A DNA stretch of 36,799 nucleotides from Thiotrichaceae bacterium (GCA_026991885.1 JALXAQ010000233.1:1-36799), one strand, 5' to 3'; numbered from the stretch's first letter, positions 1-31,709 are shown. Notes: generated from the sequence alone by a model not told the origin. A program made the numbers and translations.

Positions 1-1
1 T

Positions 2-262
2 CAAATTGATTTATTGATACGTTATGCGGGGCAATTGTTTGGTTTAGAGTTAAAGAGTTTTGCAAATCAACGAGAATATCGTAAAGCCCTCATTCAAGCG
101 GCAAAGTATGGAAAACACTTAGGCGTGTTGGAAATCTGGTTAGTGTTATTTATTGAAGCCGTTGATGACAAAAATCGTCAACGCTTTGAAGCCGATTACA
201 CTGATAGTCAAACGGGTGTTATTGTGCATCCGGTTTTTGTGCAGACGGGAAAAGACAATTAA
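2..262 (+). CDS. 3' fragment of a gene running off the left window edge; C-terminal domain possibly PD-(D/E)XK-like (ELK motif)
   Basis: The reading frame is open from position 2. A TTG/ATG-less stretch is called at 14. The ExK motif in FGLELKSF and the overall layout resemble the C-terminal nuclease-like domain of AAA-ATPase/PDDEXK_9 proteins. This is a weak by-eye call. Stop at 260-262. Confidence 0.35.
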   Translation, partial: QIDLLIRYAGQLFGLELKSFANQREYRKALIQAAKYGKHLGVLEIWLVLFIEAVDDKNRQRFEADYTDSQTGVIVHPVFVQTGKDN

Positions 263-347: not shown

Positions 348-378
348 GGTGATAAAAAATTGGTGCGTGGGACGCACC
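348..378 (-). terminator. Rho-independent terminator downstream of the radical SAM gene
   Basis: Perfect 7-bp stem GGTGCGT-GGG-ACGCACC at 362-378. On the minus strand it is followed by AATTTTTTAT. Confidence 0.5.
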
Positions 379-1239
379 CTACGTTTTATGGTATGAAAGG
401 AGCCGACTCCGCTGATCCTCCAGCGACGCATACACTGTCCCGTCCGACAGCAGGTTGCTTGATCGACATAGCCGATTTTCCAGTTCCCAAAGTGGGGTCG
501 GTTCGTGGTAATAACAGACTTGTAGTCCTCCTATTCGACGAATTTCTGGCCCCCAAGGTAGCTTAGCGACCACTTCTCCTTGCCCCACAAAAGGATCGTA
601 TTCAATCTGATGTGTCTGAGCCCAATGATTTTGGTCGGATTGCTTAAAAACCGATTTTTCATAAGTCACATAAGTGTGTTTAAATGTAAATTCTTCAACG
701 CCATAAGCTTGCAAGGTGCGAATGTATTGCCAAACCTTTTCCGTGTTATCAATGTATTCTTTGCACATGACACAAATAGCGCGGACTTTCAGGGGGGCTG
801 TCTTTTTAAAAAACTGTTCAAGGCTAATGACTTTTTGACCCATTAAGGCGCGACAAGCTTCATCATCCTGATGGTGTCTGGAATAGCAAAGATAAGAAAC
901 GCCCGCTTCTGCTAAAGCTTGCGCTAATTCAGGAGTCAAAAAACTGCCATTGGTAAAGCAAGTGATTTCATTAAAATAGTCGCGTCCCTGCCGGACAAGG
1001 TAGAGTACTTCTTGAGGGCGCAGCAAAGGTTCACCGCCTCCAGTAATCACTAGCCGTTTTGCTCCTCGTTCACGGGCAAATTCATAATAGCGGCGGATGT
1101 CCACTTTTTGCCAACTCTCGTGATGTCGTGTACTGATAGATGATTTTGAGAAACAAAACAAGCAGTTAAGATTGCAGGCCATGCGAACGGGTAGTACGCT
1201 GCAAGTTAAAAAGCGGCATTCATGCCATGATTCAGTCAT
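379..1239 (-). CDS. Radical SAM enzyme; the CxxxCxΦC motif CNLNCLFCF is viperin-like
   Basis: CNLNCLFCFSK cluster (CX3CX2C). ITGGGEPLL glycine-rich SAM motif. FTNGS element. Start is placed at the second Met (MTESW), giving an 8-nt overlap with the upstream gene. The first Met at 1266 lies inside a palindromic repeat. Last gene of the minus-strand operon. Confidence 0.8.
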   Translation of the reverse strand: MTESWHECRFLTCSVLPVRMACNLNCLFCFSKSSISTRHHESWQKVDIRRYYEFARERGAKRLVITGGGEPLLRPQEVLYLVRQGRDYFNEITCFTNGSFLTPELAQALAEAGVSYLCYSRHHQDDEACRALMGQKVISLEQFFKKTAPLKVRAICVMCKEYIDNTEKVWQYIRTLQAYGVEEFTFKHTYVTYEKSVFKQSDQNHWAQTHQIEYDPFVGQGEVVAKLPWGPEIRRIGGLQVCYYHEPTPLWELENRLCRSSNLLSDGTVYASLEDQRSRLLSYHKT

Positions 1240-4231: not shown

Positions 4232-5134
4232 TTAACCCGCAACCACTTGCCAAATCCGTTGTGAATCCACCGCAGTCACCAAGAGTTGCCCACAGAATAA
4301 ATATGAATAATGCTCACCAAGCCGTGTCAATTCTACCTTATTTGATTGAATTGTAACACTTGAGTCTTTAAATGTCAGATTTATATGACTTTCCTCGGTT
4401 TGGGTGTGTCCCAAGCATTTGTTATGATATAGCAAAGTCTTTGGCGCATTATTCATAAAAATACCCCCATAAACGCCATCCAGTCGGCGATCATGGACGC
4501 AAACCACGGAGGGGGCAACTTGGTGCATGTCTCCGGGGAGAAAGTTGTCGTGAATGTCGCGCCCGTCCAAAATGGAAACGCGATAGGGGGGGCGGGCTTT
4601 TTCCGGCGGACGTAGCAGCGGTGCGATAATCTCAATGAGAAAATTTTCGATTTTTGTCAAAGCCGGTAGTTCTTCGGCACGGGAGAGAATATAGAGCCCC
4701 ATCCAAGGGGTTTCTTGTCGTATATTTTCGCCCAAATTCCATATTTTTGTTATCAATTCTAATTGCTGTGCAGCGGGCACTTGAGATAAAGTCAGTGGAA
4801 TTTCTTTCAATAGACAATATTCAAGAAAGCTATTCCAAGTAATATTCAATGCTTGATGAGTGGCTTTTTTATTTTTAATCAAGTAGTTATATTGCCATTC
4901 TGGAATAGATTGTGTGATGTAAGCACTACCGATGCCTTCGCGGATCAAGTCCATGTAGCCAGCAAAGACTTTTTCTTTATTGTGTTGGTTGCGAATGTTG
5001 TGCCAGCAGAGTCGTGCCGCTCCTTTGCAAATTTCCAAGAAAAGTTCGTTATTCCAGTGGGCATATTGTTTTTGGCCGAGCGAATGGATGCGGTTGATTT
5101 CTTGGGTAAAATGTTGTGGTGTTTTGTTTGTCAT
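4232..5134 (-). CDS. Hypothetical protein (300 aa) in the MoxR-vWA operon
   Basis: ORF between the ATPase and the vWA gene with tight spacing. No recognisable motif. Confidence 0.5.
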   Translation of the reverse strand: MTNKTPQHFTQEINRIHSLGQKQYAHWNNELFLEICKGAARLCWHNIRNQHNKEKVFAGYMDLIREGIGSAYITQSIPEWQYNYLIKNKKATHQALNITWNSFLEYCLLKEIPLTLSQVPAAQQLELITKIWNLGENIRQETPWMGLYILSRAEELPALTKIENFLIEIIAPLLRPPEKARPPYRVSILDGRDIHDNFLPGDMHQVAPSVVCVHDRRLDGVYGGIFMNNAPKTLLYHNKCLGHTQTEESHINLTFKDSSVTIQSNKVELTRLGEHYSYLFCGQLLVTAVDSQRIWQVVAG

Positions 5135-5159
5135 TTTTTTTCAGTGCAGGCGCGTCGAG

Positions 5160-6671
5160 TTATGATCGGTTCAGTTTATGACGACATTGAACATAAAGGT
5201 GCTTTAATAAAACCAGGTCATTATGGACGGGGGCATTTAATTCATGTTTTGTCACCAAATTTTCCATTTCTTGTTGTAGCATCTGCAAACCTTGTTTGAG
5301 TTCTTGCTGTGGCAGTCCATCAATGCTTGTCTGAAGTTCTATGATAGGTTGTCGCAAGGCTTGATAAGCAACATGTTGTTTCAAGCTATGATCAAATAAT
5401 TGGCGTATCCAAGATACTTTGTCGGTTTGATAAACTTGATTTTCCGTTTTTTGAAAAAAGTCGCTTTGTGGATTGGGCTTGAGTTTTTCGTGTAATACCC
5501 AGGGCAAAATTTGACGGATGTCTTCATTTGAAACGGTGGTTTTTCCCCGAAAAAAGGCCAGTGCTTTGGCATAATGGATAATCGTTTGATAGGCGCGAGC
5601 GGATGCGCCGGATTCTGTTTGGGTGCAAATATTTTCAAATTTGTCCAGTGGACAATCTTCGGTGCAAACGTGTCCTACTCGGCGTCCGGCTAAATGAAGC
5701 GTATCTTTGTTTTGAAATTCCAGCGTATCCGATGCCCGTCGGCAAAAGTCGAGTTGCGAAATCAGAAATCCTAGAATTTCTAGTACTTCTGATGGCATTT
5801 CGATGGCGCGAATTTTTGTGCCGATTTGGTCTAATTCTTCAGGCGTAAAAATGATGTCAGTGGGCATGGGTTGCTCTGCGTTGTTTGCAATGCGCTTTGC
5901 TAATGCCGTCAGATAGCGGGTATTGAAAGGCGTACAGCGCACGACGATGTCGATACGATCTTTTAGGGCTTCAATGACTTGAAATGTGCCACCGCCTAAG
6001 TCATCATTTGCTGTCAAAAACCAGGCTGAATTTTGGCAGTGAATGATTTGTTCATACATTTCGGCATAGCCTTCTGCCATCAGGGACAGTAGACAGGATT
6101 GCGTTTTTGTTGGGATTCTGTTGTATTCGTCAATGATTTTGACGCGCATACTGATCCATTTGCGCCAGAGTACTCGGATATCGGCACTGTGACGCGCTTG
6201 AACTAAGTCGCTCGGCAAGGGGCTGCCCAATATATCGGCTTGCGTCATTTGTGGATGCCCGTGCTGAATGGCGTGTTTGATTTCGTCTAAGCTGTAGCCG
6301 GCAAGTAGTGCCATTAGGGTGGCAACGGTGGTTTTTCCCCGCCCGGGTGCTCCGATGAGTAAGAGGCGACGCGATGTCATCAAAGTCAGCAATGGCAAGA
6401 GGATAAAAGAGGCATAACTGTCTTCTGATGTTAAATTGATTTGTTGCTCGGAACGCCCCAAGGTGATGCGATGACCGTATTCTATGTCATTGTAGGGAGA
6501 ATAGATCGCGTTGTCTAGTATCCATTGATAGGCGAGCCGGCATTTTTCGGTGAGGTTGCCCGCTTTGGGGGATTTAAAGCTAATAGCTCCCGTGTCATCC
6601 AGTTGCGCTCTGCCTTTTAACCAGGATTGTACGAGTGTCTTAGCATCTGTTTGATGTGTGATGTTGTGCAT
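5160..6671 (-). CDS. MoxR-like AAA+ ATPase (AAA_5 type) with N- and C-terminal extensions
   Basis: Walker A LLLIGAPGRGKTTVA. Walker B/sensor region IIDEYNRIPTKTQSCLLSLMAEG, comparable to the MoxR LxDEINRAxPxxQSALLEAM. 503 aa. First gene of the operon. Confidence 0.8.
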   Translation of the reverse strand: MHNITHQTDAKTLVQSWLKGRAQLDDTGAISFKSPKAGNLTEKCRLAYQWILDNAIYSPYNDIEYGHRITLGRSEQQINLTSEDSYASFILLPLLTLMTSRRLLLIGAPGRGKTTVATLMALLAGYSLDEIKHAIQHGHPQMTQADILGSPLPSDLVQARHSADIRVLWRKWISMRVKIIDEYNRIPTKTQSCLLSLMAEGYAEMYEQIIHCQNSAWFLTANDDLGGGTFQVIEALKDRIDIVVRCTPFNTRYLTALAKRIANNAEQPMPTDIIFTPEELDQIGTKIRAIEMPSEVLEILGFLISQLDFCRRASDTLEFQNKDTLHLAGRRVGHVCTEDCPLDKFENICTQTESGASARAYQTIIHYAKALAFFRGKTTVSNEDIRQILPWVLHEKLKPNPQSDFFQKTENQVYQTDKVSWIRQLFDHSLKQHVAYQALRQPIIELQTSIDGLPQQELKQGLQMLQQEMENLVTKHELNAPVHNDLVLLKHLYVQCRHKLNRS

Positions 6672-6832
6672 AAGAATTTTGGATGTTTTTTGACTCTCAT
6701 TCTCTAATCATTTAATATTGCCATCGGGTATGATGCTTGAAACTTATCAGCGGTTCAGGTTCTGTATGCCTGTCTGGCGCACGGTCTGATGTGGCCTGTG
6801 TGTACCGAGAGCCGATGGCTATATCCACCATT

Positions 6833-6905
6833 CGTTAGATAGCTCATCAGGTAGAGCAACTGACTCATAATCAGTGTGTAGCAGGTTCGATTCCTGCTCT
6901 AACTC
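6833..6905 (+). tRNA. tRNA with anticodon CAU (Met or Ile2 type), 73 nt, no encoded CCA; acceptor stem AT-rich with a C1-U72 mismatch
   Basis: Folded by hand. Acceptor CGTTAGA/TCTAACT. D-arm GCTC-ATCAGGTA-GAGC. Anticodon arm ACTGA-CTCATAA-TCAGT (U33, CAT, A37). Variable loop GTGTA. T-arm GCAGG-TTCGATT-CCTGC. Discriminator C. Confidence 0.55.
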
Positions 6906-6908
6906 ATA

Positions 6909-6935
6909 TGACTTGCCAAGTCACTATTTTAACAC
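6909..6935 (+). terminator. Hairpin plus T-tract after the tRNA
   Basis: TGACTTGCCAAGTCA followed by CTATTTT. Confidence 0.35.
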
Positions 6936-7176
6936 AAGAACCGTGACCGTCTTCGGTGGGCATCAGTGATGCTCACAGCATGTTCAGGGCTTTGTGTGAT
7001 AATGGGTACGGCAAGCTTGGTTTTTTCTCTCCGTGTTGTCCCTAAACCCAAGCCAGATAGATTTTACGTTTTGGGGGCGGGCTGACGGGCGGATTAAATC
7101 CAGCTTGTCGCAAATTGTCACCCGCATTGTGCATGTGGGGGCGGTCATTTAATAAATGGAACAGGAGGCTAAAATC

Positions 7177-8307
7177 ATGTTGATATTCAGTCAATTTATT
7201 GTTCACAAAAATGAACGGGGATTGTTATTTAAAGAGGGTGACTTTTTGGATTTTTTGGCACCAGGCACTTATCGCTATTTTGATCCCTTGCATAAAATTC
7301 AAGTAGAACGCTATGATTTGTCTGTTCCAGAGTTTGAACATCGCTTGGTCGATTTTTTTATTAAAGAATATGCCGATGCTGTTGCGCGTTATTTTACAAT
7401 TATTGAATTGGGTGCCCAACAAGTCGCCTTACTCTATAAAAATGGACGATTAACGAATATTTTACCGCCTTCTAGCCGCCAATTGTATTGGAATGGGATT
7501 GTGGAGGTTAAGACAGAAATTATTGATATTTCAGACAAATTTGAAATTTCGCGTGTTCAAGCCGCGCCGCTTGTGTATGCACCTGTACAAGGTGTGAATG
7601 AAGCTATTTATAGTCAAGAAGTGCCAGAATATCAGATTGGTTTGTTGTATGTTGATGGACAATGTATTAAAACCTTGCAACCCGGTTTACACGCTTATTG
7701 GCAATTTAATCGTCATATCAATATTGTTATGTGGGATACCCGCCTACAAGATATAGAAGTTTCTGGACAAGAAATTCTGACCAAAGATAAAGTGAGTTTG
7801 CGTGTGAATCTATCTGCGACTTATTCTATTAAAAATGTGCAGCGTGCAACCTCTACTTTAACTAATCCCGTTAATTATTTGTATAAAGAATTGCAATTTG
7901 GGCTACGCGCTGCGGTGGGTACTCGTACTTTAGATGAATTGTTAGGTAATAAAAATGTGATTGATGAGATCGTGTTTGCCTATATCCGCGATAAGATGGC
8001 GGAATTGGGTATTGAAGTGCAAAGCGTGGGCGTAAAAGACATCATTTTGCCGGGTGAGATGAAAACGATTTTGGCTAAAGTGGTTGAAGCGGAAAAGGTA
8101 GCACAAGCGAATTTAATCAAACGCCGTGAGGAGACGGCTGCGACTCGCTCCTTGCTGAATACGGCTAAAGTGATGGAAGATAATCCGACCGCTTTACGGT
8201 TGAAAGAGCTTGAGGTACTTGAGAAGGTGACGGAGAAAATTGGTAAACTATCTGTGTATGGCGGCTTGGAAGGTTTATTGAAGGAATTGGTTAAAATTAA
8301 GACTTAA
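7177..8307 (+). CDS. SPFH/Band-7 (stomatin/prohibitin/flotillin-like) domain protein
   Basis: NERGLLFKEG opening typical of SPFH proteins. Long C-terminal coiled coil (KVVEAEKVAQANLIKRREETAA). AGGAGG RBS 9 nt upstream of the ATG at 7177. Confidence 0.75.
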   Translation: MLIFSQFIVHKNERGLLFKEGDFLDFLAPGTYRYFDPLHKIQVERYDLSVPEFEHRLVDFFIKEYADAVARYFTIIELGAQQVALLYKNGRLTNILPPSSRQLYWNGIVEVKTEIIDISDKFEISRVQAAPLVYAPVQGVNEAIYSQEVPEYQIGLLYVDGQCIKTLQPGLHAYWQFNRHINIVMWDTRLQDIEVSGQEILTKDKVSLRVNLSATYSIKNVQRATSTLTNPVNYLYKELQFGLRAAVGTRTLDELLGNKNVIDEIVFAYIRDKMAELGIEVQSVGVKDIILPGEMKTILAKVVEAEKVAQANLIKRREETAATRSLLNTAKVMEDNPTALRLKELEVLEKVTEKIGKLSVYGGLEGLLKELVKIKT

Positions 8308-9285
<978 letters not shown>

Positions 9286-9287
9286 TT

Positions 9288-9328
9288 TGAACGACAGGGA
9301 TTAATTATTAGCAGGGATAAGTCAAAAC
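9288..9328 (+). repeat. Copy 2 of the roughly 40-bp intergenic repeat
   Basis: TTGAACGACAGGGATTAATTATTAGCAGGGATAAGTCAAAAC directly after the trxB stop. Confidence 0.7.
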
Positions 9329-9344
9329 ATTATATTTTCGTTGT

Positions 9345-9400
9345 TTCGGGAATGGAGCTGATTTCCCGAAACAAAACTTCAAAAAAGTCGTTTTTTTTCC
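9345..9400 (+). terminator. Rho-independent terminator of trxB
   Basis: 12-bp stem TTGTTTCGGGAA...TTCCCGAAACAA followed by an A/T run ending in TTTTTTTT. Confidence 0.6.
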
Positions 9401-9447
9401 GGTAGAAGTTGTACTTATCGCAAACTGATAGGTGGTAATAACTTAAT

Positions 9448-9951
9448 ATGAGCAAAAAAAATTTTGATGCTTTTCTCAAAAAACATGAATCAAAAAAGAA
9501 AGAAGAAAATAATTGGGATGAAATAAAAAGAGAATGGCTTGATAAGGTAAGAGAATTCTATTCTCTTGTACATAAATGGTTAAAGGAGTATGAAAAACAA
9601 GGCCAAGCCAAACTAAAATTTTTGCCGTACTGGCTAAATGAGGAATATATTGGCAGTTACGAAACTCAAAAATTACACCTTAAAATAGCTAACCAAGAGA
9701 TCGTATTTCTCCCTATTGGTACACGATTATTTGGAGCAAAAGGTCGAATTGATATGGAGGGCATAGCCGGTAAGGTCAAGTTTTTATTGGTTGATAAAAA
9801 TGCCACAAGAGCAGGCGTTAAAGTCAAACTTTATGATGGAAAAAACCTTGATTGGGTTTGGAAAATAGCAACCCCTCCGCCTACAATTCAATTAATTGAA
9901 TTGAATGAGGAAAGTTTTTTTGATGCAGTAATGGAAGTGATAAATGGGTAA
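9448..9951 (+). CDS. Hypothetical Lys-rich protein (167 aa), first gene of an AT-rich two-gene module
   Basis: AT-rich codon usage distinct from its neighbours. RBS AGGTGG upstream. The stop overlaps the next gene's start (ATGGGTAA). Confidence 0.6.
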   Translation: MSKKNFDAFLKKHESKKKEENNWDEIKREWLDKVREFYSLVHKWLKEYEKQGQAKLKFLPYWLNEEYIGSYETQKLHLKIANQEIVFLPIGTRLFGAKGRIDMEGIAGKVKFLLVDKNATRAGVKVKLYDGKNLDWVWKIATPPPTIQLIELNEESFFDAVMEVING

Positions 9952-10483
9952 GCGAGTAAACTTTTCTGACTCAAATCTGGAGCTACATGAAATTACTCAG
10001 CATCATACTGAGACAGAAAATGCCTTGAAGGAATATTATGGTGTTGACGGTAAAAGAGAGTTTCTACCCGTTAAGTTCATTGGCTATTCGGCAGAAGAGG
10101 TATTTATCGAGTTTCGTTCCAGAATTGAAGAATTAGAAAAAACGTCATCATTGACTTTGTTGTCATCGCTTGAAGCCAAACTAAGAATTGATTATCTAAA
10201 ACGCTGTTATCAAAAAGGAAAAGATGGTTTATCAAAGGATTTTAGAGCAATACACAAGCAAAAATATCATCGAGCCTCTTTAGAAGAAGATATTCTTGAA
10301 ACTTGGAAAAAACATTACCCTGAAAAAAAATGGCTAATATCTGAGTTGCTTGGGGCTTTAAAGTATAGGCATTGGCTTGCTCACGGTCGTTATTGGGAAC
10401 CAAAATTAGGCAGAAAATACGATTACTCATACATTTATTCTTTAATAGAGCAAGCCTATAAAAACTTACCATTGAAGAGTTAA
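9944..10483 (+). CDS. Hypothetical protein with a C-terminal HEPN-like Rx4H motif (YRHWLAHGRYW); candidate RNase, toxin or Abi effector
   Basis: R-x4-H in LKYRHWLAHG near the C-terminus of a 179-aa alpha-helical-looking protein. Translationally coupled to the upstream gene. Confidence 0.5.
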   Translation: MGKRVNFSDSNLELHEITQHHTETENALKEYYGVDGKREFLPVKFIGYSAEEVFIEFRSRIEELEKTSSLTLLSSLEAKLRIDYLKRCYQKGKDGLSKDFRAIHKQKYHRASLEEDILETWKKHYPEKKWLISELLGALKYRHWLAHGRYWEPKLGRKYDYSYIYSLIEQAYKNLPLKS

Positions 10484-10497
10484 TCGCATAACAATAC

Positions 10498-10530
10498 CAG
10501 CTTTAAGTTAACGACAGCCAATTTTGATTT
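10498..10530 (+). repeat. Degenerate copy of the roughly 40-bp intergenic repeat
   Basis: AGTTAACGACAGCC... after the stop at 10483. Only the AACGACAG core is conserved. Confidence 0.35.
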
Positions 10531-10602
10531 GACATATCCTAATAAATGTCCAATACTGTATTTGAATGTATCCAGCTTTGTTTTTAATTGAGACTATAAG
10601 TT

Positions 10603-11220
10603 ATGAAAAAAAAATTTGCTTCATTCCTCATCACAGGGAAAGCGGCTACGCTCCCCTTTTTTATGAATAACAGCGTGGCTGATACCAACCTTGCAGATAT
10701 GTTATTCGATAGCAGCCAACCACAGCTAATGGAACGAGCGGGGCAAGGCATTGCGGTGACAGGTGACACGGTGCAAATCGTATCCCCTGGTCCTGGCTGT
10801 TCGTTCCCTCAGCCCACTGACATCATGAATGTCGTTGTCACGGGCGTGCGTAACGGTGATTTTGTTTTCATCGCTTCTGCTGATAACAAAGACGATCCAA
10901 ATTTTATCGCTGTCAATCCCGCTTTTAGAATTGGTCAACAAAACTTGCGTATTTTGACCAGCTTTTATGTCGATAGATTGGAATTGTCGCCACTATCCGG
11001 TTTCGAGCATGGAGGCGGCGATTTGGGCAACGCAGTGTCTGCCATTTCGGTGCCTGTGGATTTGAATCAAATATCAAGCACTGGTTTATTTTATATGCAA
11101 GCTTTGATTCTGCGTCCTAATCCGCTTACAGCAGAATTGCCAGCTACTATGGTTTTTTCAGAATTGGATGAAATTAAGCAAGTGACAGCGACTTGTGACT
11201 CTTATGGTATACATTACTAA
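10603..11220 (+). CDS. Secreted hypothetical protein (signal peptide)
   Basis: MKKKFASFLITGKAATLPFFMNNSVA-DT signal-peptide-like N-terminus. Followed by a terminator hairpin. Confidence 0.6.
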   Translation: MKKKFASFLITGKAATLPFFMNNSVADTNLADMLFDSSQPQLMERAGQGIAVTGDTVQIVSPGPGCSFPQPTDIMNVVVTGVRNGDFVFIASADNKDDPNFIAVNPAFRIGQQNLRILTSFYVDRLELSPLSGFEHGGGDLGNAVSAISVPVDLNQISSTGLFYMQALILRPNPLTAELPATMVFSELDEIKQVTATCDSYGIHY

Positions 11221-11926: not shown

Positions 11927-14900
11927 ATGAAAAAAGAAACTATTCTTGTTTTTGCCCCCCATCCTGATGATGAAATTTTGGGCTGTGGCGCTTATATCGC
12001 TAAACGACGAGCGGATGGCGTGAGATGTTACGTCGTCGTCGTTAGCGACGGTGCGCGAGGCTTGCCCAGAGGAACGCTACCGGATGTCCGTCAACAAGAA
12101 TGTCGAGCCGGGTTGGCGTGTTTAGGGATTGATGATGTGCAATTTTGGGAATATCCCGATGGTGGTGTGCCATTGAGCGGCGATATTTTGCATGATTATC
12201 GGCGCATTGTTGCGGAACTGAAGCCGACTATTATTTTATTACCTAACCCGCAAGAGTCTCATTCTGATCATCGGCGCGTGACGCGAGGTGTGTTAAATGC
12301 CCTCGAAGAGCAGTGGCAAGGGCATTTATTATTTTATGAAACCGTGCATCCGGCAACCGTCATCAATCATGTCGTTGACATTTCCAGTACTTTCGATAAA
12401 AAATTACAGGCGATACAGGAACATAAGTCACAACTCCGCTCTTTTGATTTCGCTACTCATGTAGAGACTTTGGCACGTTTGCGTGGCTTACATGTTAAGG
12501 CGGAGTGTGCCGAAGCCTTTCTGCAACATGAATGGGATGGCACGGCGCAAAATTTTTTTGAAACTCGTCCCCTCATTTCAGTGATTGTGCGTGCCGATGA
12601 TGCGGATTATCTCCGCCATGCTTTGATCAGTTTAATTCATCAAACTTATGAACAATTTGAAGTGATTTTGGTTTGGTTTGGCGGCGATTCTCCCTCGCTC
12701 AAAGACTTTGATGTTTTAGATATTCGTTTTTTCCCGGGTAAACCCTCACGCAGTTTCAATCTCAATCAAGGTTTGCGCTATGCGCGTGGCGAATATGTCG
12801 CTATGCTTGATCAAGACGATATATTATATCCGCAACACTTTGCTTGCCTGCTCGCCGAAATTCACGGACAACCCCAGATAGATGTCGTGTATAGTGGTTG
12901 CAAAGTCGTTGCCTGCGAGAAAATTGACCAGCGAGTCAAAGTCAATAAAGTCATTGATGTTATGAACCGCCCTTGGCAGCCGGGGCGTTTATTGATTGGT
13001 AACACTATTCCTAACCATGCCCTGTTGTTTCGTGCTTCGGTGTTTCATAGTCATCAATTTGATGAAGATTTTGAAATTTATGAAGATTGGGAATTCTTGT
13101 CTCGCTTGAGCAATTTGACTTTTGTACATGTGGATGAGATTAGCTGTGAGTATCGTATTTTCAGCGACACCGAAATCCAATCATACATTCAAGTCCATAA
13201 GGATAAAGGTTATCTCGACCATGCACAAAAGGTCATTACATCAATTCTCAAAAATTTAGAATTGAACGACTTTGAGAAAATTATTTCTTTAGTCAACCAT
13301 TTAGAAAAGCAACAACATTTATTAACGATTCAATTGAGTGAACAAACTCAACAGCGCCAAGCACTCGCCCAACAGCTTGAACAGTCCCACCGTTTGGAGC
13401 AATTACTTGCCGATACGTGTGCCGCTGTTGGCATTGAGGCGGCGGGGAGACAGGGCATCGCGCAACTCATTGGGCGGACGCTGCCCCAGCAAACTTTGTT
13501 TTCAATTATTTTGCCTGTTTATAATACGGAGGCTACTATTCTCCGCCAAACTCTGTTGTCGGTACGCAATCAAGCCTATAGTGGTTGGGAATTGTGTTTA
13601 GTGGATGATGGCTCAGATCGTGAGGAAACGCGGCAAGTGTTGCAAGCGGTGCAAAATGATCCTGTGCTCGCAAAACGTTTACATTATCTGCGCCGCGACA
13701 CCCAAGGGGGTATTGTGGCTGCCAGCAATGATGCGATCAAAATGGCAACGGCTCCTTATGTCGCTTTTCTTGATCATGATGATAATTTGCACCATGAAGC
13801 TTTACTCAGGCTCGCTTTGAAACTTGAGCAAGAAGATTATACGTTGCTCTATACTGACAGCCGTATGATAGATCACAGCGGGCAAGCGATGCATACTTAT
13901 CAAAAAGCGGATTGGTCTCCTGAAACTTTGTTGCATTTTAATTATATTAATCATCTCACTGTCGTTAAGCGAGAAATATTGAAGGATGGATTGCGTGCTG
14001 ATTTTAATGGCGCACAAGATTGGGATTTATTGTTGCAATTAGTGGGTTTGCCAGATGAGCAGGTGTGTCATATACGCCACCCCCTTTATGATTGGCGAGC
14101 GACGGAAAGTTCGGTCGCTTACCAAGGTGATGAAAAAACTTATGCTTTTGAAGCGGCACAATCGGCGCTGATAAGTCACTTAACGGGGCGTGGTTTAGAA
14201 GAGGTTACTGCTAATAAAAAAGGGGCGGGATTTGTTTGTCAATGGCGTTCTCCCTTAGAGCCCATCGACATTATCATTCCCACCCATAGTAACCTGAGTG
14301 GACTCAAAACTTGCCTCAATGGTTTATTGCAATTGACTGATTATCCTCAATTCAATATTATTGTTGTTGCAAACCGCTGTGCTGCGCCAGTACAGAATTA
14401 TCTCAATTCTCTTGGGCAGATTAAAATATTGGTCAATGATGAGCCATTTAATTGGTCAACTCTGAATAATCAGGCTGTTATCTCGGGAGAGAGCCCTATT
14501 TTGTTGTTTTTAAACGATGATATTGAAATTAAACAGGCCAGTTGGTTGGGCGATCTCAGGCGGTATTTATATTTAGATGGTGTAGGCGCCGTCGGTGCTA
14601 CGCTGTTTTATCCAAATGACGATTTGCAACATAATGGTATCGAAACTAATCCGCAATGGGTTGCCCGTAATATCCAAAAATCGGGCAATGCGCTCCGTGC
14701 CACCCGCAACGTTTCGGCGGTGACGGGGGCGTGTCTATTAACTAAACGAAGCGTGTGGCAACAGGTGGGCGGATTCGATGAAAATTTGGCAGTATCGTAT
14801 AACGATGTTGATTTTTGTTTAGCCATCCGTCGCCAAGGACTGAGAATTGTCCAAGCCACAGATGTTGAGTTGATTCACGATGAACATGCTACTTATGGCA

Positions 14901-15043
14901 CGGTTGATAATCCCGAAAAAGAAGCTCTTTTTCGCAAAGAAATCAATTTTATGCGAGAAAAGTGGGGAGATTTTTTGAGTGAACGTTACATGCCACGTTA
15001 CGATGTACAAGCACAAAAGACGCGCATTTTACACTTAAAATGA
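11927..15043 (+). CDS. Multidomain protein: N-terminal PIG-L/LmbE-type (CE14) deacetylase plus three GT2 glycosyltransferase domains
   Basis: FAPHPDDEILGCGA LmbE/PIG-L motif at the N-terminus. Three GT2 cores: ISVIVRA...LDQDD, FSIILPVYN...VDDGSD...FLDHDD, and IDIIIPTH...FLNDDIEI. 1038 aa. Confidence 0.85.
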   Translation: MKKETILVFAPHPDDEILGCGAYIAKRRADGVRCYVVVVSDGARGLPRGTLPDVRQQECRAGLACLGIDDVQFWEYPDGGVPLSGDILHDYRRIVAELKPTIILLPNPQESHSDHRRVTRGVLNALEEQWQGHLLFYETVHPATVINHVVDISSTFDKKLQAIQEHKSQLRSFDFATHVETLARLRGLHVKAECAEAFLQHEWDGTAQNFFETRPLISVIVRADDADYLRHALISLIHQTYEQFEVILVWFGGDSPSLKDFDVLDIRFFPGKPSRSFNLNQGLRYARGEYVAMLDQDDILYPQHFACLLAEIHGQPQIDVVYSGCKVVACEKIDQRVKVNKVIDVMNRPWQPGRLLIGNTIPNHALLFRASVFHSHQFDEDFEIYEDWEFLSRLSNLTFVHVDEISCEYRIFSDTEIQSYIQVHKDKGYLDHAQKVITSILKNLELNDFEKIISLVNHLEKQQHLLTIQLSEQTQQRQALAQQLEQSHRLEQLLADTCAAVGIEAAGRQGIAQLIGRTLPQQTLFSIILPVYNTEATILRQTLLSVRNQAYSGWELCLVDDGSDREETRQVLQAVQNDPVLAKRLHYLRRDTQGGIVAASNDAIKMATAPYVAFLDHDDNLHHEALLRLALKLEQEDYTLLYTDSRMIDHSGQAMHTYQKADWSPETLLHFNYINHLTVVKREILKDGLRADFNGAQDWDLLLQLVGLPDEQVCHIRHPLYDWRATESSVAYQGDEKTYAFEAAQSALISHLTGRGLEEVTANKKGAGFVCQWRSPLEPIDIIIPTHSNLSGLKTCLNGLLQLTDYPQFNIIVVANRCAAPVQNYLNSLGQIKILVNDEPFNWSTLNNQAVISGESPILLFLNDDIEIKQASWLGDLRRYLYLDGVGAVGATLFYPNDDLQHNGIETNPQWVARNIQKSGNALRATRNVSAVTGACLLTKRSVWQQVGGFDENLAVSYNDVDFCLAIRRQGLRIVQATDVELIHDEHATYGTVDNPEKEALFRKEINFMREKWGDFLSERYMPRYDVQAQKTRILHLK

Positions 15044-16824: not shown

Positions 16825-19434
16825 TCAAACCCACTTCATCATCCCCATTTCATGTGCATCAACTAGCACTTCATGGTAGGGAAATACGCGAATACGGTAG
16901 CTTAAGCCTCCGCACAATTCCGGTTTCAAAGTGAGATTGTAGAGATATTCTCCGCTATCGTGCAGGGGATGTTCTGGCACAAACCTATAAGAAACTGTTT
17001 CCATCTTATTGTTCTGCCAGAGGTTTTGCAAATCTTCTTGAGTAGGCAGTAAAACGTCAGGGTGATAAACTTTGTGCGAGAGCAATAATTCGACCGCCAC
17101 ATCAGTTGGCTGTAGTTCATTTAAGCGCACGGCAACTTGTATGTTTATTGATTCACCACTGGTCATTTGTATCTGTGGTGCTGACAATGGGCGAGCTTCT
17201 ACGCCACTCCACTTGGCCCTGACATTGGCTTTCCAATGAGCTAATTCCCGCGCTTTGGCATAATTGTCGCTATTCAACTGCCTAGCTTGATGACTGGCAG
17301 GCAGGTAAAAATCACTTAAGTAGTCATTGAGCATCCGCTGGGTGTTAAAGCGGGGGAGTATCGTCGCCATAGAATGTTTGGCCTTTTTTACCCAGCCTTC
17401 AGAATAACCGTCTTTATTTCGCTCGTAGTAAAGTGGAATGATTTCATCTTGCAAAACTTCGTACAGACTGCGGGCATCTTCATCATCACGCAAATGATGA
17501 TTGTCATGGTGTGGAGATGGTTTAATCGCCCAACCATTTTCTCCGTCATAACTTTCTGGCCACCAACCATCAAGTACACTGAGGTTGAGGCCGGCATTGA
17601 GCGCCACTTTCATGCCAGAAGTCCCACTGGCTTCTTCGGGATAGACGGGGTTATTGAGCCACACATCAACGCCAGAGACTAAACGCCGTGAGAGGCCCAA
17701 ATCATAGCCTTGCACGACCAGAATTTTACCCATGAATTCGGGCAGACAACTTTTATTGTAAATCTCTCTCAGCAAGTCTTGCCCTGGTCCATCAGCGGGA
17801 TGGGCTTTGCCGGCAAAAATAAAGACCACGGGTCTTTCGGTATCATTGATGATAGTCCGCAATCTGTCAATGTCTCTGAGCAAGAGGGCGGCACGTTTGT
17901 AGGTGGCGAAGCGGCGTGCAAAGCCAATGGTCAGAATATTGGGATTTTTGGGATCAATGTATTTGAGTAAACGCTCCAAATGCGTTTCTGAGATTTGATA
18001 AGGTAAATGTTGGGCGGTTAAGGTATCGCATACTTTGGCCAACATGCGTGATTTGACCGTTTGCCTGATATTCCAAAATTGTTGGTCAGGCATGTTTTCT
18101 ATCGCTTGCCAAAATTTGACATCACACTGATGGTCGCGCCATTCTACGCCTAATGATTCGTCAAATAAGTTAGTCCATTCTCGTGCCAACATAGAGGGCA
18201 CATGGACACCATTGGTGACATGGCGTATAGGATTTTCTTTGGGGGCAATTTCGGGCCAAAATTTGGCACAAATTTCAGATGAGATGTCGCCATGAATACG
18301 ACTGACTCCGTTCCGATGCCGTGAGCCTTGAACGGCTAAGGTTGTCATGTTGAAATCAGGCGAATCATTGGGCAAACAACCGAGTGCCATAAATTGTTCT
18401 TCGGATATTCTCAAGTCGTGATGATAAAAAGCACCCAGATAGTTCTTCACTTCTTCGGGTGAAAAATGATCATGTCCTGCCGGCACTGGGGTATGGGTGG
18501 TAAATACGGTATTAGCCGCAACGGCTTCAATCGCCGTTTCAATCGACTGTCCCTCGTCTCTCAATTCACGCGCTCTTTCCAGGATCAAAAAGGCGGCATG
18601 ACCTTCATTGATATGCCAAACCGTTGGGGCAATGCCTAATCTTCTGAGTAGTCGCACGCCGCCAATACCCAAGACAATTTCTTGTTTGATGCGGATATCT
18701 TGACCGCTGTCGTAGAGTTTGTGGGTAATCTGACGATCATCGTCATTGTTTTGTGGGACGTTGGTATCGAGCAAGTAGAGGTCAATATGCCCGACTTGTA
18801 TTTTCCAAACTTGGGCTAATACTTGTGTTTCTGCAATCTTGATATCAATATAGATGGCTTGTTTTGCTTCATCTACCACCAGAGTGATTGGCAAGTGTTG
18901 CGGAACGTTTTCATTATAGGTAGCAATCTGATTGCCTTGATCATCTATCCGTTGGGAAAAATAGCCTTGATGGTAAAACAAGCCAACTGCGACAAATGGC
19001 AAGCGCATATCACTCGCTGTCTTGCAATGATCGCCGGCTAAAATACCTAATCCGCCGGAATAAATGGGCAAGCTTTCGTGGAAGCCATATTCGGCGCAAA
19101 AATAGGCAATGAGATCATCTTCTGCTAATTGTTTTCCACCATTACGCCGCTCTTTGGCATGACAATAGGCATCATAGGTGACTAAGACTTGCTTATAGGC
19201 ATCGAGAAATGATTGATCAGTGAGGGCATTATCTAGTCGTCTTTGATCAATATTGCGTAAAAATAATTTAGGATTATCTCTCACCCGAATCCATAACTCT
19301 TCATCAAGCTGCTCAAATAGCTGCCGGGCTGGGATATTCCAGCTATACCATAAATTATTCGCCAATTCTTCAAGGCGTTTTAAAGCCTCTGGCAAGATGG
19401 GGGTGACTTCTAAGTTGAATTCTTGTGCTGACAT
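16825..19434 (-). CDS. glgP: Alpha-glucan (glycogen) phosphorylase
   Basis: TSGMKVALNAGLNLSVLDGWW region. Size about 870 aa. Start placed at MSAQEF because the upstream Met overlaps the glnA terminator hairpin. Confidence 0.9.
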   Translation of the reverse strand: MSAQEFNLEVTPILPEALKRLEELANNLWYSWNIPARQLFEQLDEELWIRVRDNPKLFLRNIDQRRLDNALTDQSFLDAYKQVLVTYDAYCHAKERRNGGKQLAEDDLIAYFCAEYGFHESLPIYSGGLGILAGDHCKTASDMRLPFVAVGLFYHQGYFSQRIDDQGNQIATYNENVPQHLPITLVVDEAKQAIYIDIKIAETQVLAQVWKIQVGHIDLYLLDTNVPQNNDDDRQITHKLYDSGQDIRIKQEIVLGIGGVRLLRRLGIAPTVWHINEGHAAFLILERARELRDEGQSIETAIEAVAANTVFTTHTPVPAGHDHFSPEEVKNYLGAFYHHDLRISEEQFMALGCLPNDSPDFNMTTLAVQGSRHRNGVSRIHGDISSEICAKFWPEIAPKENPIRHVTNGVHVPSMLAREWTNLFDESLGVEWRDHQCDVKFWQAIENMPDQQFWNIRQTVKSRMLAKVCDTLTAQHLPYQISETHLERLLKYIDPKNPNILTIGFARRFATYKRAALLLRDIDRLRTIINDTERPVVFIFAGKAHPADGPGQDLLREIYNKSCLPEFMGKILVVQGYDLGLSRRLVSGVDVWLNNPVYPEEASGTSGMKVALNAGLNLSVLDGWWPESYDGENGWAIKPSPHHDNHHLRDDEDARSLYEVLQDEIIPLYYERNKDGYSEGWVKKAKHSMATILPRFNTQRMLNDYLSDFYLPASHQARQLNSDNYAKARELAHWKANVRAKWSGVEARPLSAPQIQMTSGESINIQVAVRLNELQPTDVAVELLLSHKVYHPDVLLPTQEDLQNLWQNNKMETVSYRFVPEHPLHDSGEYLYNLTLKPELCGGLSYRIRVFPYHEVLVDAHEMGMMKWV

Positions 19435-29792: not shown

Positions 29793-31709
29793 TTAACGAA
29801 AATACAAGACTGCCTTGCGTAATTGTCCTACGGTTTCAAACCGACTACGATAACGGGTTTGCACGTAGAGTTCAATAATCTTTTGAACGGGAACGGCTAA
29901 ATCAGGCCGTGCTGCGCTGACACGGGTGGCATAGCTAATTGGTCCCTCACTCGGATGGCGATGCAAACCTTGCCGTGCCAATTTTTTGCAAAAGCGCAAA
30001 TAAATTTTTTGCGCGGGATCACGCACAAGCTTCTGTGGAAAAAACATCCAAGCAGCATAGCCTAATAATAAAGTTGTTATGATGATAATCAATGCTATGG
30101 TCATGCCAGACCAATCAATGTTTTTTAATCCTAAGCGGCTTAAAAATTCCCGTTGTTGTGCAGGACCATAACCCAGTATCCATTGATTCCAACCATTATT
30201 GATCGCATCCCAACGATTTGCCAATTGTTGCCAAATATTCAAATCAAGGGGGGAATTAAATGTCATTGGTAATGCCGATTCAATCCCTTGCTCTACCCGT
30301 ATGGGTGCGACAGCATTCGTTGGATCAATCCGTATCCAGCCTTTATCTGGCAACCAAATTTCACTCCAAGCGTGGGCATCGCGCTGCCGCACAATCAGGT
30401 AATTTCCAATCGGATTGAAATTGCCGCCCAAATAGCCTGTGACTATCCGTGCGGGAATCCCAGCGGCTCGCATTAGAACGGTAAAGGCAGCGGCATAATG
30501 TTCGCAAAAACCGTTGCGGGTTTCAAATAAAAATTCATCAATGGGATCATTTAACAATAAATCTGGTGTATAGGTATATACAAAAGCCTGTTCATTAAAA
30601 TATTGCAAAGCGCGTTTGACAAGGGCTTCTGGATGAGGCGCTTCTTGCCGCCATTGTGCTGCCAAAGCGCGGGCACGAGGATGTTTTCCTGGTGGCAATT
30701 GTAAAGCCAAGCGGTATTGTCGCTTTGTGATGAAATCTGCACGATAATGAGTGTAAGATCGCACTTGATAACGCATTCGTTCTCGTATAGGGCGTTTTGC
30801 CAATATCTGATAATCTGCTGTCATCGTGCCCTCAGTGGGTGGTTGGACAGGTAATTCGAGGGCAAATAACCACTGTTCATAATGCGGTTCTAAAGTGACA
30901 GTATAATCAAAATGTTCTCCGCTGGGGTGGATGTTTAATTGATTAACGATCTGATGTTGTTGAAATCCACTTTTCCACTCGCGCCCATTGGTCCACCATA
31001 ACACGGGTCCACGCCAATAGCGTAGCTCTGGCGGCGGTAGTTTTCCTTTGACACGAAAGGCGACTTCATCGGAGAGCGTTAATTGGTTGACATCCCCTAT
31101 TGACATTCTATCACTTAAACCGGTGATACCAGTGCGGCTATCTATGGGCAATTTCCAAAATGGTCCTGCGACACGGGGAAATAAAAAAAATAAGACTAAC
31201 ATCACTGGCAAAGCTTGTATTAATAATATGCTTGATAGGCGCAGACGTTGGGGTGTTGACAAGCTCTTTTTTTCATCGTTTAAGCTGATAAGTGTCGCCG
31301 TTGCTACCAGCATGACGAGGCTCATATATAACGCAGTGGGAATGGATTGAGAATATAGAAAATTGGTAATGATAAGGAAATAGCTTAAAAAACAAACCAT
31401 TAAAAATTCTCGTCTGTTTTTCATTTCCAACAATTTTAATCCAGACAAAAGCACTAAGAAAGTAATACTGGCATCGCGTCCAAAACGAATGCCATAAGTG
31501 AAAAAAAGCCCCAGTAGCACGAGCAACATTATAGTGAGTAGTAGCCAGAGAGGGGGTAAATGCCACTTTTTTTGTGTTATCAGATAACGCCATAAGAGTA
31601 ATGCCAAAAAGAGTGCTGGGCTCCAAATCACCATGCGAGACATAAGTGGCAAGACAACTAATATTAATGTCACTATCAGCCACAATAAGGTATCTAAACG
31701 CTGTGCCAT
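29793..31709 (-). CDS. Transglutaminase-like protein TgpA type (N-terminal polytopic membrane domain plus Cys-His-Asp core)
   Basis: GFCEHYAAAF (Cys), AHAWSEIW (His), IRIDPT (Asp). Start at MAQRL overlaps the DUF58 stop (TAATG). Confidence 0.8.
   Translation of the reverse strand: MAQRLDTLLWLIVTLILVVLPLMSRMVIWSPALFLALLLWRYLITQKKWHLPPLWLLLTIMLLVLLGLFFTYGIRFGRDASITFLVLLSGLKLLEMKNRREFLMVCFLSYFLIITNFLYSQSIPTALYMSLVMLVATATLISLNDEKKSLSTPQRLRLSSILLIQALPVMLVLFFLFPRVAGPFWKLPIDSRTGITGLSDRMSIGDVNQLTLSDEVAFRVKGKLPPPELRYWRGPVLWWTNGREWKSGFQQHQIVNQLNIHPSGEHFDYTVTLEPHYEQWLFALELPVQPPTEGTMTADYQILAKRPIRERMRYQVRSYTHYRADFITKRQYRLALQLPPGKHPRARALAAQWRQEAPHPEALVKRALQYFNEQAFVYTYTPDLLLNDPIDEFLFETRNGFCEHYAAAFTVLMRAAGIPARIVTGYLGGNFNPIGNYLIVRQRDAHAWSEIWLPDKGWIRIDPTNAVAPIRVEQGIESALPMTFNSPLDLNIWQQLANRWDAINNGWNQWILGYGPAQQREFLSRLGLKNIDWSGMTIALIIIITTLLLGYAAWMFFPQKLVRDPAQKIYLRFCKKLARQGLHRHPSEGPISYATRVSAARPDLAVPVQKIIELYVQTRYRSRFETVGQLRKAVLYFR

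Follow-up and report, generated by a model that had tools for sequence, protein, structure and literature searches.

A distinct, strongly conserved and unnamed family of radical SAM (rSAM) enzymes was revealed by sequence comparison of g6, the product of the last gene of an operon in a 36.8-kb stretch of DNA from a Thiotrichaceae bacterium (the whole of this stretch is called the window below). The intact gene evolves under purifying selection, and databases mislabel the members of its family as MoaA or as PFL activase. The core fold of g6 is nearest to those of MoaA, viperin, AbmM and BlsE, and the substrate and cluster features that define MoaA and viperin are absent. Taken as a whole, the observations are best explained by a rSAM family that has an aminotransferase-fold partner, is encoded in a MoxR-vWA operon and may perform nucleotide- or NAD-type chemistry, an explanation that we rate at about even chances.

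That the gene encodes a radical SAM enzyme, as stated in the initial annotation, was confirmed by its match to the Pfam model Radical_SAM (PF04055; 61.8 bits, cut-off 29.5, E 1e-16), and since this score is far above the cut-off the cluster motif is not a chance occurrence. The motif, CNLNCLFCF, provides C22, C26 and C29 in the CxxxCxxC arrangement, and the GGEP and NGS elements noticed earlier read GGGEP (residues 67-71) and TNGS (residues 96-99). Both the GGE-type SAM-binding motif and the partial TIM-barrel fold of the superfamily are present. Further motifs are SRH, FTFKHTY, LPWGP, CRSSNLLSDGxVYASLED and a strand with R153. The reading frame starts with ATG, 8 nt downstream of an AAGGA Shine-Dalgarno sequence, and a TTG at 1266 is an alternative start. 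The dN/dS ratio of g6 was 0.21 when compared with Candidatus Thiomargarita nelsonii (contig L007) and 0.13 when compared with Parabeggiatoa (L008), and purifying selection was observed for all six genes of the operon.

Table 1. Features of the operon and its flanks, with positions counted from the first nucleotide of the window.
Feature	Position	Strand	Basis or remark
g1, MoxR-type AAA+ ATPase, 503 aa, first operon gene	5160..6671	minus	AAA_3, AAA_5, AAA_lid_2
g2, 300 aa, without recognisable domain, most variable component	4232..5134	minus	comparison between phyla
g3, zincin-type HExxH and vWA protein, 549 aa	2557..4206	minus	motifs, alignment
g4, helical or coiled-coil protein, 200 aa	1980..2582	minus	sequence
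g5, 237 aa	1232..1945	minus	conserved motifs WHTG, LFRDxGP, EPYTD, LCxAWHH
g6, radical SAM enzyme, 286 aa	379..1239	minus	ORF, Pfam, alignment
GC-rich hairpin GGTGCGTCCCACGCACC then AATTTTTTAT	362..378	minus	directly 3' of the rSAM stop codon
tRNA-Met(CAT), right-hand flank of the operon	6833..6905	plus	160 nt beyond the operon start
AAA_35/PD-(D/E)XK-type gene, 3' end, left-hand flank	1..262	plus	gene repeated in related genomes

The six genes are co-directional and closely packed or overlapping on the minus strand, in the order MoxR AAA+, variable protein, HExxH-vWA protein, coiled-coil protein, g5 and rSAM enzyme (Table 1). The AAA+ and vWA genes, described earlier as upstream of g6 with no strand given, are upstream only when the minus strand is read. 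The N-terminus of g3 contains an invariant zincin-type HExxH (H70, E71, H74 and H75), and its C-terminal vWA domain an equally invariant MIDAS of the DxSGS type (D374-x-S376-G-S378). The identity of g2 between phyla is only 24-35%. No Pfam matches were obtained for g2, g4 and g5, and searches of the PDB with profiles of g5 and g3 returned coiled-coil noise or nothing. The end of g5 overlaps the start of g6 by 8 nt, an arrangement that suggests translational coupling. The DNA of the operon is 92-95% identical to two contigs of Candidatus Thiomargarita nelsonii (L006 and L007) and about 80% identical to the Parabeggiatoa metagenome-assembled genome. The hairpin that follows g6 has a T-run after it and is terminator-like. 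Related genomes contain it as a short repeat, which in L006 again lies 3' of the rSAM gene and in L007 is located at an unrelated site. Beyond the operon and its flanks the window consists of ordinary chromosome (genes for SPFH, TrxR-like, glycosyltransferase, BamD, GlnA, PRK, NadA and other proteins), in which PADLOC recognised no known defence system and gave only weak pVip and IetA matches.

Homologous clusters of g6 in a large protein database numbered 779. The best 120 of these all consist of proteins of about 300 aa with 61-92% identity, and their labels are 'radical SAM protein', 'cyclic pyranopterin phosphate synthase' (JGI) and 'PFL-activating enzyme'. The family alignment exhibits 107 invariant columns and the specific motifs SRH, RAxCVM, FTFKHTY, LPWGP, YxEPxPxWE and CRSSNLLSDGxVYASLED. 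Genome hits came from Beggiatoaceae, many Planctomycetota, Myxococcota, Mycobacterium, Acidimicrobiia and a few Proteobacteria. The family was absent from a phage collection, and a plasmid collection contained no close copies, only distant ones on large replicons. We found no published experimental or specific computational description of the family.

When 1.8 billion representatives were searched exhaustively with a profile (3469 hits, 89 below 1e-30), a sister clade was uncovered beyond the core family, with scores of 160-212 bits and the same signature. Among the residues invariant in both clades are R62, GGGEP, SRH (120-122), R153, C156, K187, LPWG, E246-P247, W251-E252, R259 and ASLE. Its proteins are of two kinds, one of 420-480 aa with an N-terminal domain of about 140 aa, and one a fusion of 740-860 aa in which this rSAM domain is preceded by a Pfam Aminotran_1_2 domain that keeps the lysine of its SLSK motif. 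Large replicons of Ralstonia sp. RRA.1 and of Embleya carry genes for the sister rSAM enzyme, a class I/II aminotransferase and a methyltransferase, in that order.

An aminotransferase-fold protein also accompanies the core family. Gene order was compared on three long contigs and in 53 genome loci identified by tblastn, about 30 of which, across several phyla, contain the same g1-g5 set. At almost every locus that is long enough, the rSAM gene is immediately followed by a gene for a protein of about 300 aa, g7, which is 52-72% identical to reference copies between phyla. The g7 proteins of the relatives have the fold of class I/II aminotransferases, i.e. of fold-type I PLP enzymes. Their invariant SFSRGFG aligns to SFSK, with Arg in place of the Schiff-base Lys, and the S-x-S-K pattern is thus lost; the partners in the sister clade keep the lysine in SLSK or STTK. 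The lysine is dispensable in this fold, as illustrated by the PMP-dependent sugar dehydratases. Neither single-sequence BLAST nor hhalign gave a significant match between g7 and the sister-clade aminotransferases, and the parallel between them therefore rests on fold and gene order. Since fusion and conserved adjacency are found in two clades, the rSAM enzyme and the aminotransferase-fold protein form a two-part functional unit.

In the window, g7 is missing from its usual place, and a tblastn search of all 36.8 kb was negative even at E = 10. Homology with all relatives is lost at about position 401, seven codons short of the stop codon of g6; the last residues of the protein (…RLLSYHKT) are unlike those of the relatives, and the gene then runs into the hairpin GGTGCGTCCCACGCACC. 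Other arrangements were found in related genomes. In T. nelsonii from Hydrate Ridge g7 is located upstream of the MoxR gene instead, and g2 is separated from g3 by a 1.7-kb insertion with BrnT/BrnA-like and MqsA-like ORFs. A Thiomargarita-like contig (L090) carries an orphan g7 after a 64-nt remnant of the rSAM 3' end that is 81% identical. These three arrangements show that the ancestral junction between the rSAM gene and g7 has been broken repeatedly in this lineage. In the window, genome rearrangement has detached g7 and left an operon that ends in the hairpin. The organism probably retains g7 elsewhere, and with no g7 adjacent to g6 the activity here would depend on this putative partner.

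A second type of operon was found at loci L016, L026, L030, L048 and L053 and in Mycobacterium. It keeps the MoxR, HExxH-vWA, g4-like, rSAM and g7 genes, while g2 is replaced by a protein with a weak nucleoside-deoxyribosyltransferase-like domain and g5 by an AMP-binding ligase, with an integrase-like gene alongside. One further locus, L087, has the rSAM-g7 pair but neither a MoxR nor a vWA gene; here the pair closes a cluster with genes for NAPRTase, NAD synthase, a NUDIX-NrtR regulator, nicotinamidase/PncA, Tpt1/KptA, NADAR, NUDIX, a Macro-like protein, DUF4291 and an ADP-ribosylglycohydrolase. Related genes recur at a few other loci: a Macro gene abuts the MoxR gene, with DUF4291 downstream, at L003; an ADP-ribosylglycohydrolase (ARH, 135 bits) is encoded directly upstream of MoxR at L052; and the sister-clade trio of Ralstonia comes directly after NadM-Nudix and NadV/NAMPT. 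DUF4291 has been linked to Macro, ARH, NUDIX and Tpt1 and predicted to act as an ADP-ribosyltransferase (PMC12522546). In all, the linkage to NAD or ADP-ribose genes is seen in about 4 of some 55 loci and is absent among the neighbours in the window, and we take it as a lead on the substrate and no more. A link through SPFH was rejected, as the Band_7 gene of the window is unrelated to the 401-aa protein of L087.

The lysine-less g7 could itself be what the rSAM enzyme acts on. Under such a scheme g6 would be a maturase that modifies g7, g5, g4 or a small peptide, for instance by generating a protein-derived cofactor in g7; modification of this sort was predicted by Kaur et al. 2020 for the rSAM genes of MoxR-vWA systems. 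No SPASM match to g6 in Pfam or NCBIfam attained a cut-off, a CxxCxxxxxC-type motif is absent, and the cysteines of g6 are only scattered and family-specific. Membership among the SPASM/twitch maturases was thus rejected, and g6 also has no RiPP recognition element and no conserved small ORF for a precursor peptide. Moreover, the partner in the sister clade keeps its lysine and is fused to the rSAM domain, which points to two enzymes of one pathway rather than to an enzyme and its substrate, and the pair at L087 lacks g1-g5 and is found among small-molecule NAD enzymes. We consider a maturase unlikely, albeit worth keeping in mind.

A classic role of MoxR-vWA pairs is that of maturation chaperones (CbbQO, NorQD and CoxDE). 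By analogy, the rSAM enzyme and g7 could be a housekeeping pair that makes a cofactor or metabolite, with the MoxR and vWA proteins only as chaperones for assembly or metal insertion and no conflict system involved. The very high sequence identity of 55-65% between phyla, the low dN/dS ratios and the position of the operon among chromosomal housekeeping genes beside a tRNA are all in line with this. On the other hand, despite its high identity the family is patchy across phyla and not lineage-wide, g2 is variable and diverges fast, and in Thiomargarita the operon readily breaks up and is rearranged. In other genomes, moreover, the flanks contain AbiE, SduA_C (Shedu-type), PD-(D/E)XK and integrase genes. 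A housekeeping function is therefore an unlikely reading of these loci.

The initial annotation had suggested a viperin-like enzyme, i.e. a prokaryotic viperin (pVip/SAND) that would dehydrate CTP, UTP or GTP to chain-terminating ddh-nucleotides. Viperin is indeed among the closest solved relatives of g6, by structure as well as by profile, but the profile comparison proposed at the time did not place g6 with the viperins. The NCBIfam viperin model NF038283 (viperin_w_prok) gave 45.4 bits against a cut-off of 180, covering model positions 10-105 of 281 and hence only the first third, and the PADLOC pVip models gave 46 bits, with no more than the N-terminal 100 residues matched. All NCBIfam matches of g6 are in fact confined to its first 100-150 residues or so, the generic cluster and SAM core, and the sister-clade relatives are below the viperin and MoaA cut-offs as well. 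When the family was aligned to solved viperins with hhalign, a probability of 87% (E 4e-6) was obtained over 179 columns, weaker than for MoaA (see below), and the alignment stopped at viperin column 213 of 293, before the C-terminal nucleotide/substrate region.

Motifs told the same story. Four solved viperins were aligned and the residues seven to five before the first cluster cysteine inspected for N-(Y/F)-H: N-Y-H is invariant in all four, whereas the g6 family has V-L-P. The roles of the viperin substrate residues are taken from general background together with the invariant positions of these four sequences; the human viperin sequence was validated against the PDB, where nearly every residue aligns with mouse viperin (5VSL, E 1e-187). 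The C-terminal extension and beta-8 loop of viperin, and with them its nucleotide pocket, have no counterpart in g6, which instead has GGGEP and C-terminal motifs of its own, unrelated to those of viperin (the invariant LPWGP, YxEPxPxWE and RSxNLLSDGxxYASLED). Furthermore, the g6 family is almost invariably paired with g7, while viperins are found alone or beside a kinase and have no aminotransferase-fold partner. Cut-offs, motifs and hhalign together exclude g6 from the viperins, and the viperin reading is now very improbable. Nor does g6 clearly belong to the MoaA, QueE or SPASM families, which had been named as the alternatives to viperin; it falls outside them, in a family of its own.

Comparison of structures, also proposed earlier, was carried out with an AlphaFold model of g6 built from 32 family members (pLDDT 77, pTM 0.81). 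It did retrieve viperin-like enzymes in Foldseek (E 3e-9 to 1e-7), but these matches cover only 216-225 residues of the model, and MoaA was better, with E 1.7e-11 and TM 0.66 over the full length. MoaA was also ahead in hhalign (S. aureus MoaA, 97% probability, E 2e-10) and gave the best NCBIfam scores (49-55 bits with TIGR02666, TIGR02668 and NF001199; TrsS reached 48 bits). A search of all PDB sequences with the family profile ranked AbmM first (7e-9), then MoaA (3e-6) and BlsE (3e-5), with a single viperin-like enzyme at 1e-3. The viperin sequence itself matches MoaA at 1e-5. Thus g6 lies in the structural neighbourhood of MoaA and viperin, about as distant from each as they are from one another.

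A MoaA paralogue, i.e. a GTP 3',8-cyclase of molybdenum cofactor synthesis, is hardly credible despite these best matches, the JGI label and the resemblance of the LLSDG hairpin motif of g6 to RLSSDG of MoaA, because the scores are far below the NCBIfam cut-offs of 231-325 bits, only one of the three cysteines of the auxiliary cluster is kept (C258, equivalent to C264 and 90% conserved), the GTP-binding arginines R17, R266 and R268 are replaced by Val, Ser and Asn, and the operon contains no MoaC, MoaB or MoaE gene. The position of MoaA C278 is an invariant Ser in the family, and the role of the three arginines we take from the triple-mutant entry 2fb2 and established knowledge. What g6 shares with MoaA is the partial TIM-barrel core, matched over its whole length, similarly placed basic residues on strands 2, 5 and 6 and the C-terminal hairpin motif xLSxDG. 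It differs in the loss of the auxiliary [4Fe-4S] site and of the GTP arginines, in gene context and in its aminotransferase-fold partner, and membership in MoaA was excluded.

Precedents for the pairing itself are BlsE with its aminotransferase, and DesII with DesI, which are pairs of rSAM and PLP enzymes that act on nucleoside or nucleotide sugars. Their sequence identity to g6 is below 20%, g7 has Arg for Lys, and the setting of g6 is a MoxR-vWA operon, not an antibiotic gene cluster. AbmM, the rSAM enzyme of the albomycin thiosugar, is the best sequence match among solved structures and acts on a nucleoside or nucleotide sugar (PMC12691670). Its match to g6, however, covers only the first 100 or so core residues, and its auxiliary cluster serves as sulfur donor, whereas no equivalent set of conserved cysteines is found across the g6 superfamily.

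The nearest solved relatives by sequence (AbmM, MoaA, BlsE and viperin) all act on nucleosides or nucleotides, and by analogy this points weakly to a nucleotide-type substrate for g6. Invariant basic residues in both clades are R62 (strand 2), R121 and H122 (strand 4), R153 (strand 5), K187 (strand 6) and, as part of the C-terminal hairpin motif, R259. Sequence alignments place R62 and R153 at K69 and K163 of MoaA, and R62 at K120 of viperin; on strands 5 and 6 the register differs by two residues between alignments. From these positions we infer that the basic residues of g6 may be equivalent to the triphosphate binders of MoaA and viperin.

The preferred reading, a rSAM enzyme and an aminotransferase-fold partner acting on a nucleotide- or NAD-type compound, can be phrased as a mechanism. 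The rSAM enzyme would abstract a sugar hydrogen and thereby create a radical on a small anionic substrate, and the aminotransferase-fold g7 would process the product, or bind and hold it, a scheme that resembles BlsE with its aminotransferase or DesI/DesII. The MoxR, vWA and zincin part would be an ATP-driven switch that gates the rSAM enzyme and g7; the fast-evolving g2 is a candidate sensor of the trigger, upon which the switch would release or activate the enzymes. The pair would then be the output of a conflict-type system, with the logic proposed for MoxR-vWA systems. In favour of such a system are the patchy distribution, the variable g2 and the AbiE, SduA_C, PD-(D/E)XK and integrase neighbours, whereas the negative PADLOC result and the absence of the family from the phage collection count against it. 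We put forward tentatively, at somewhat less than even chances, that the pair acts as such an output, switched by the MoxR-vWA-zincin machinery, and that what it transforms is a small anionic compound (most plausibly a nucleotide, a sugar-nucleotide or an NAD/ADP-ribose-derived compound). The narrower version, in which the rSAM enzyme and its lysine-less partner synthesize or degrade a modified nucleotide, NAD/ADP-ribose-derived or other, that is the toxin or signal delivered by a MoxR-vWA-zincin immune switch, is unlikely as it stands. In the initial annotation g6 had been proposed as effector arm of the AAA+/vWA machinery. The tie to these genes held, as the operon recurs in about 30 of the 53 loci, while the viperin chemistry attached to it did not, and a nucleotide-acting enzyme may still be the effector arm, an idea for which there is now some indirect support.

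Ternary MoxR-vWA conflict systems, including some that have a zincin peptidase and, as effector, a 'distinctive radical SAM' protein, have been predicted, and they are enriched in multicellular or otherwise complex bacteria (PMC7159879); the rSAM proteins of the 'FtsH ternary' class were predicted to modify peptides (Kaur et al. 2020, PMC7159879). The operon described here resembles these systems in that MoxR AAA+ and MIDAS vWA genes are joined by extra conserved components in one operon, and in its hosts (Beggiatoaceae, Planctomycetota, Myxococcota and actinobacteria). It differs in the absence of VMAP, iSTAND, FtsH-type and beta-propeller components, both in the window and in the variant operon of L016, which has the NDT-like and AMP-binding proteins. 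Specifically, none of g2, g4 and g5 was recognised as the third component typical of these systems (VMAP, iSTAND, double FtsH-type AAA+ or beta-propeller), neither operon type yielded an FtsH-type ATPase, and the supplement of PMC7159879 contained no terms that match the g6 family. A literature search gave no characterised MoxR-vWA-rSAM system and no rSAM enzyme linked to NADAR or ADP-ribose.

An unusual partner and regulatory context for a rSAM enzyme of the MoaA/viperin neighbourhood is what is new here. To our knowledge, rSAM enzymes of this neighbourhood catalyze unusual nucleotide chemistry, and viperin is the only one known in immunity. The distribution of the g6 family is wide, its hundreds of clusters coming from giant sulfur bacteria, planctomycetes, myxobacteria and mycobacteria. 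For annotation, the consequence is that a false viperin or MoaA call is removed for g6. The aminotransferase-fold partner, the fused relatives and the MoxR-vWA and occasional NAD/ADP-ribose neighbours make the family a tractable way into new enzymology, and they bear on what the MoxR-vWA 'conflict systems' deliver, a matter so far addressed by prediction only. If the immune-switch reading is true, nucleotide-based immunity would have in this family a second radical-SAM arm of independent origin, mechanistically parallel to viperin but with other chemistry and a two-protein catalytic module.

In Candidatus Thiomargarita nelsonii and its relatives the arrangement of the radical SAM (rSAM) gene and its aminotransferase-fold partner g7 is disturbed in more than one way. 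The g7 gene of the Thiomargarita-like contig L090 (P0121) is an orphan preceded by 64 nt of an rSAM 3'-end (81% identical), and this remnant is the footprint of a broken rSAM-g7 pair. In the Hydrate Ridge T. nelsonii genome g7 is displaced to a position upstream of MoxR, and the operon carries a 1.7-kb insertion that separates the variable gene g2 from the HExxH-vWA gene g3; this insertion has ORFs for an MqsA-like zinc-finger protein and for BrnT/BrnA-like toxin-antitoxin components.

The variant operon of locus L016, which adjoins an integrase-like gene, has the g2 position taken by a protein whose C-terminal domain weakly resembles nucleoside 2-deoxyribosyltransferase, and the g5 position by an AMP-binding (PaaK-like) ligase.

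Positions of the features discussed
Feature	Contig	Position	Strand	Remark
AAA_35/PD-(D/E)XK-type gene, 3' end	Window	1-262	+	
Tandem copies of the above	L090	190-463, 1899-2172		
17-nt palindrome	Window	362-378	-	Identical copies
17-nt palindrome	L006 (T. nelsonii)	1144-1160		Identical copies
17-nt palindrome	L007 (T. nelsonii)	19049-19065		Identical copies
rSAM gene	Window	379-1239	-	
tRNA-Met(CAT)	Window	6833-6905	+	160 nt from MoxR operon start
PIG-L/GT2 protein	Window	11927-15043	+	1038 aa
Transglutaminase/DUF58 genes	Window	29793-32662	-	
Insertion between g2 and g3	L007 (Hydrate Ridge)	5190-6873		
Orphan g7	L090	7009-8043		
Replacement genes of variant operon	L016	4196-5206, 8613-9962		
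NAD-salvage and ADP-ribose cluster	L087	1-12574		
rSAM/aminotransferase/methyltransferase	L092 (Ralstonia)	4930-10682		

The 3' end of the AAA_35/PD-(D/E)XK-type gene at the edge of the window is 96% identical in DNA sequence to two tandem copies in L090; on the strength of this identity it is a member of a repeated gene family, and it marks the rearrangement boundary. At the opposite end of the operon the tRNA-Met(CAT) gene, with a divergent SPFH/Band_7 gene on its far side, may be an island insertion site. In two strains (window and L006) the stop codon of the rSAM gene is directly followed by the palindrome GGTGCGTCCCACGCACC despite differing rSAM C-terminal tails, and a further copy lies at an unrelated site in L007. 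It resembles a short hairpin of the mobile or repeated kind that also serves as a terminator.

Elsewhere in the window, GNAT acetyltransferases flank a multidomain protein with a PIG-L deacetylase domain and three GT2 glycosyltransferase domains, and a TgpA-type transglutaminase gene adjoins a DUF58 (vWA-like) gene. Such pairs usually have a MoxR ATPase alongside; none is present next to this one.

The rSAM-g7 pair was also observed without MoxR or vWA, as the terminal part of a cluster (L087) encoding NAPRTase, NadE, NrtR, PncA, Tpt1, NADAR, NUDIX, Macro-like, DUF4291 and ARH proteins, and is followed there by a 204-aa unknown protein. In Ralstonia sp. RRA.1 (NZ_CP146092) the NadM-Nudix and NadV/NAMPT genes are directly followed, on their 3' side, by genes for a 445-aa rSAM of the sister clade, for an aminotransferase and for a methyltransferase; Embleya (L093) has the same three genes, without NAD genes.

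Within the rSAM family C8, C13, C94, C118 and C242 are invariant and C258 is conserved at 90%, and none of the six is present in the sister clade. These additional cysteines may be auxiliary-cluster ligands or disulfide formers; the N-terminus is of low confidence in the AF2 model. Four sister-clade proteins of metagenomic source (P0252, P0255, P0263 and P0280; 740-860 aa) are fusions of an aminotransferase, a middle domain of ~140 aa and an rSAM. Several of them contain N/K/I-rich, low-complexity sequence, a composition that suggests an origin in AT-rich eukaryotes or giant viruses.
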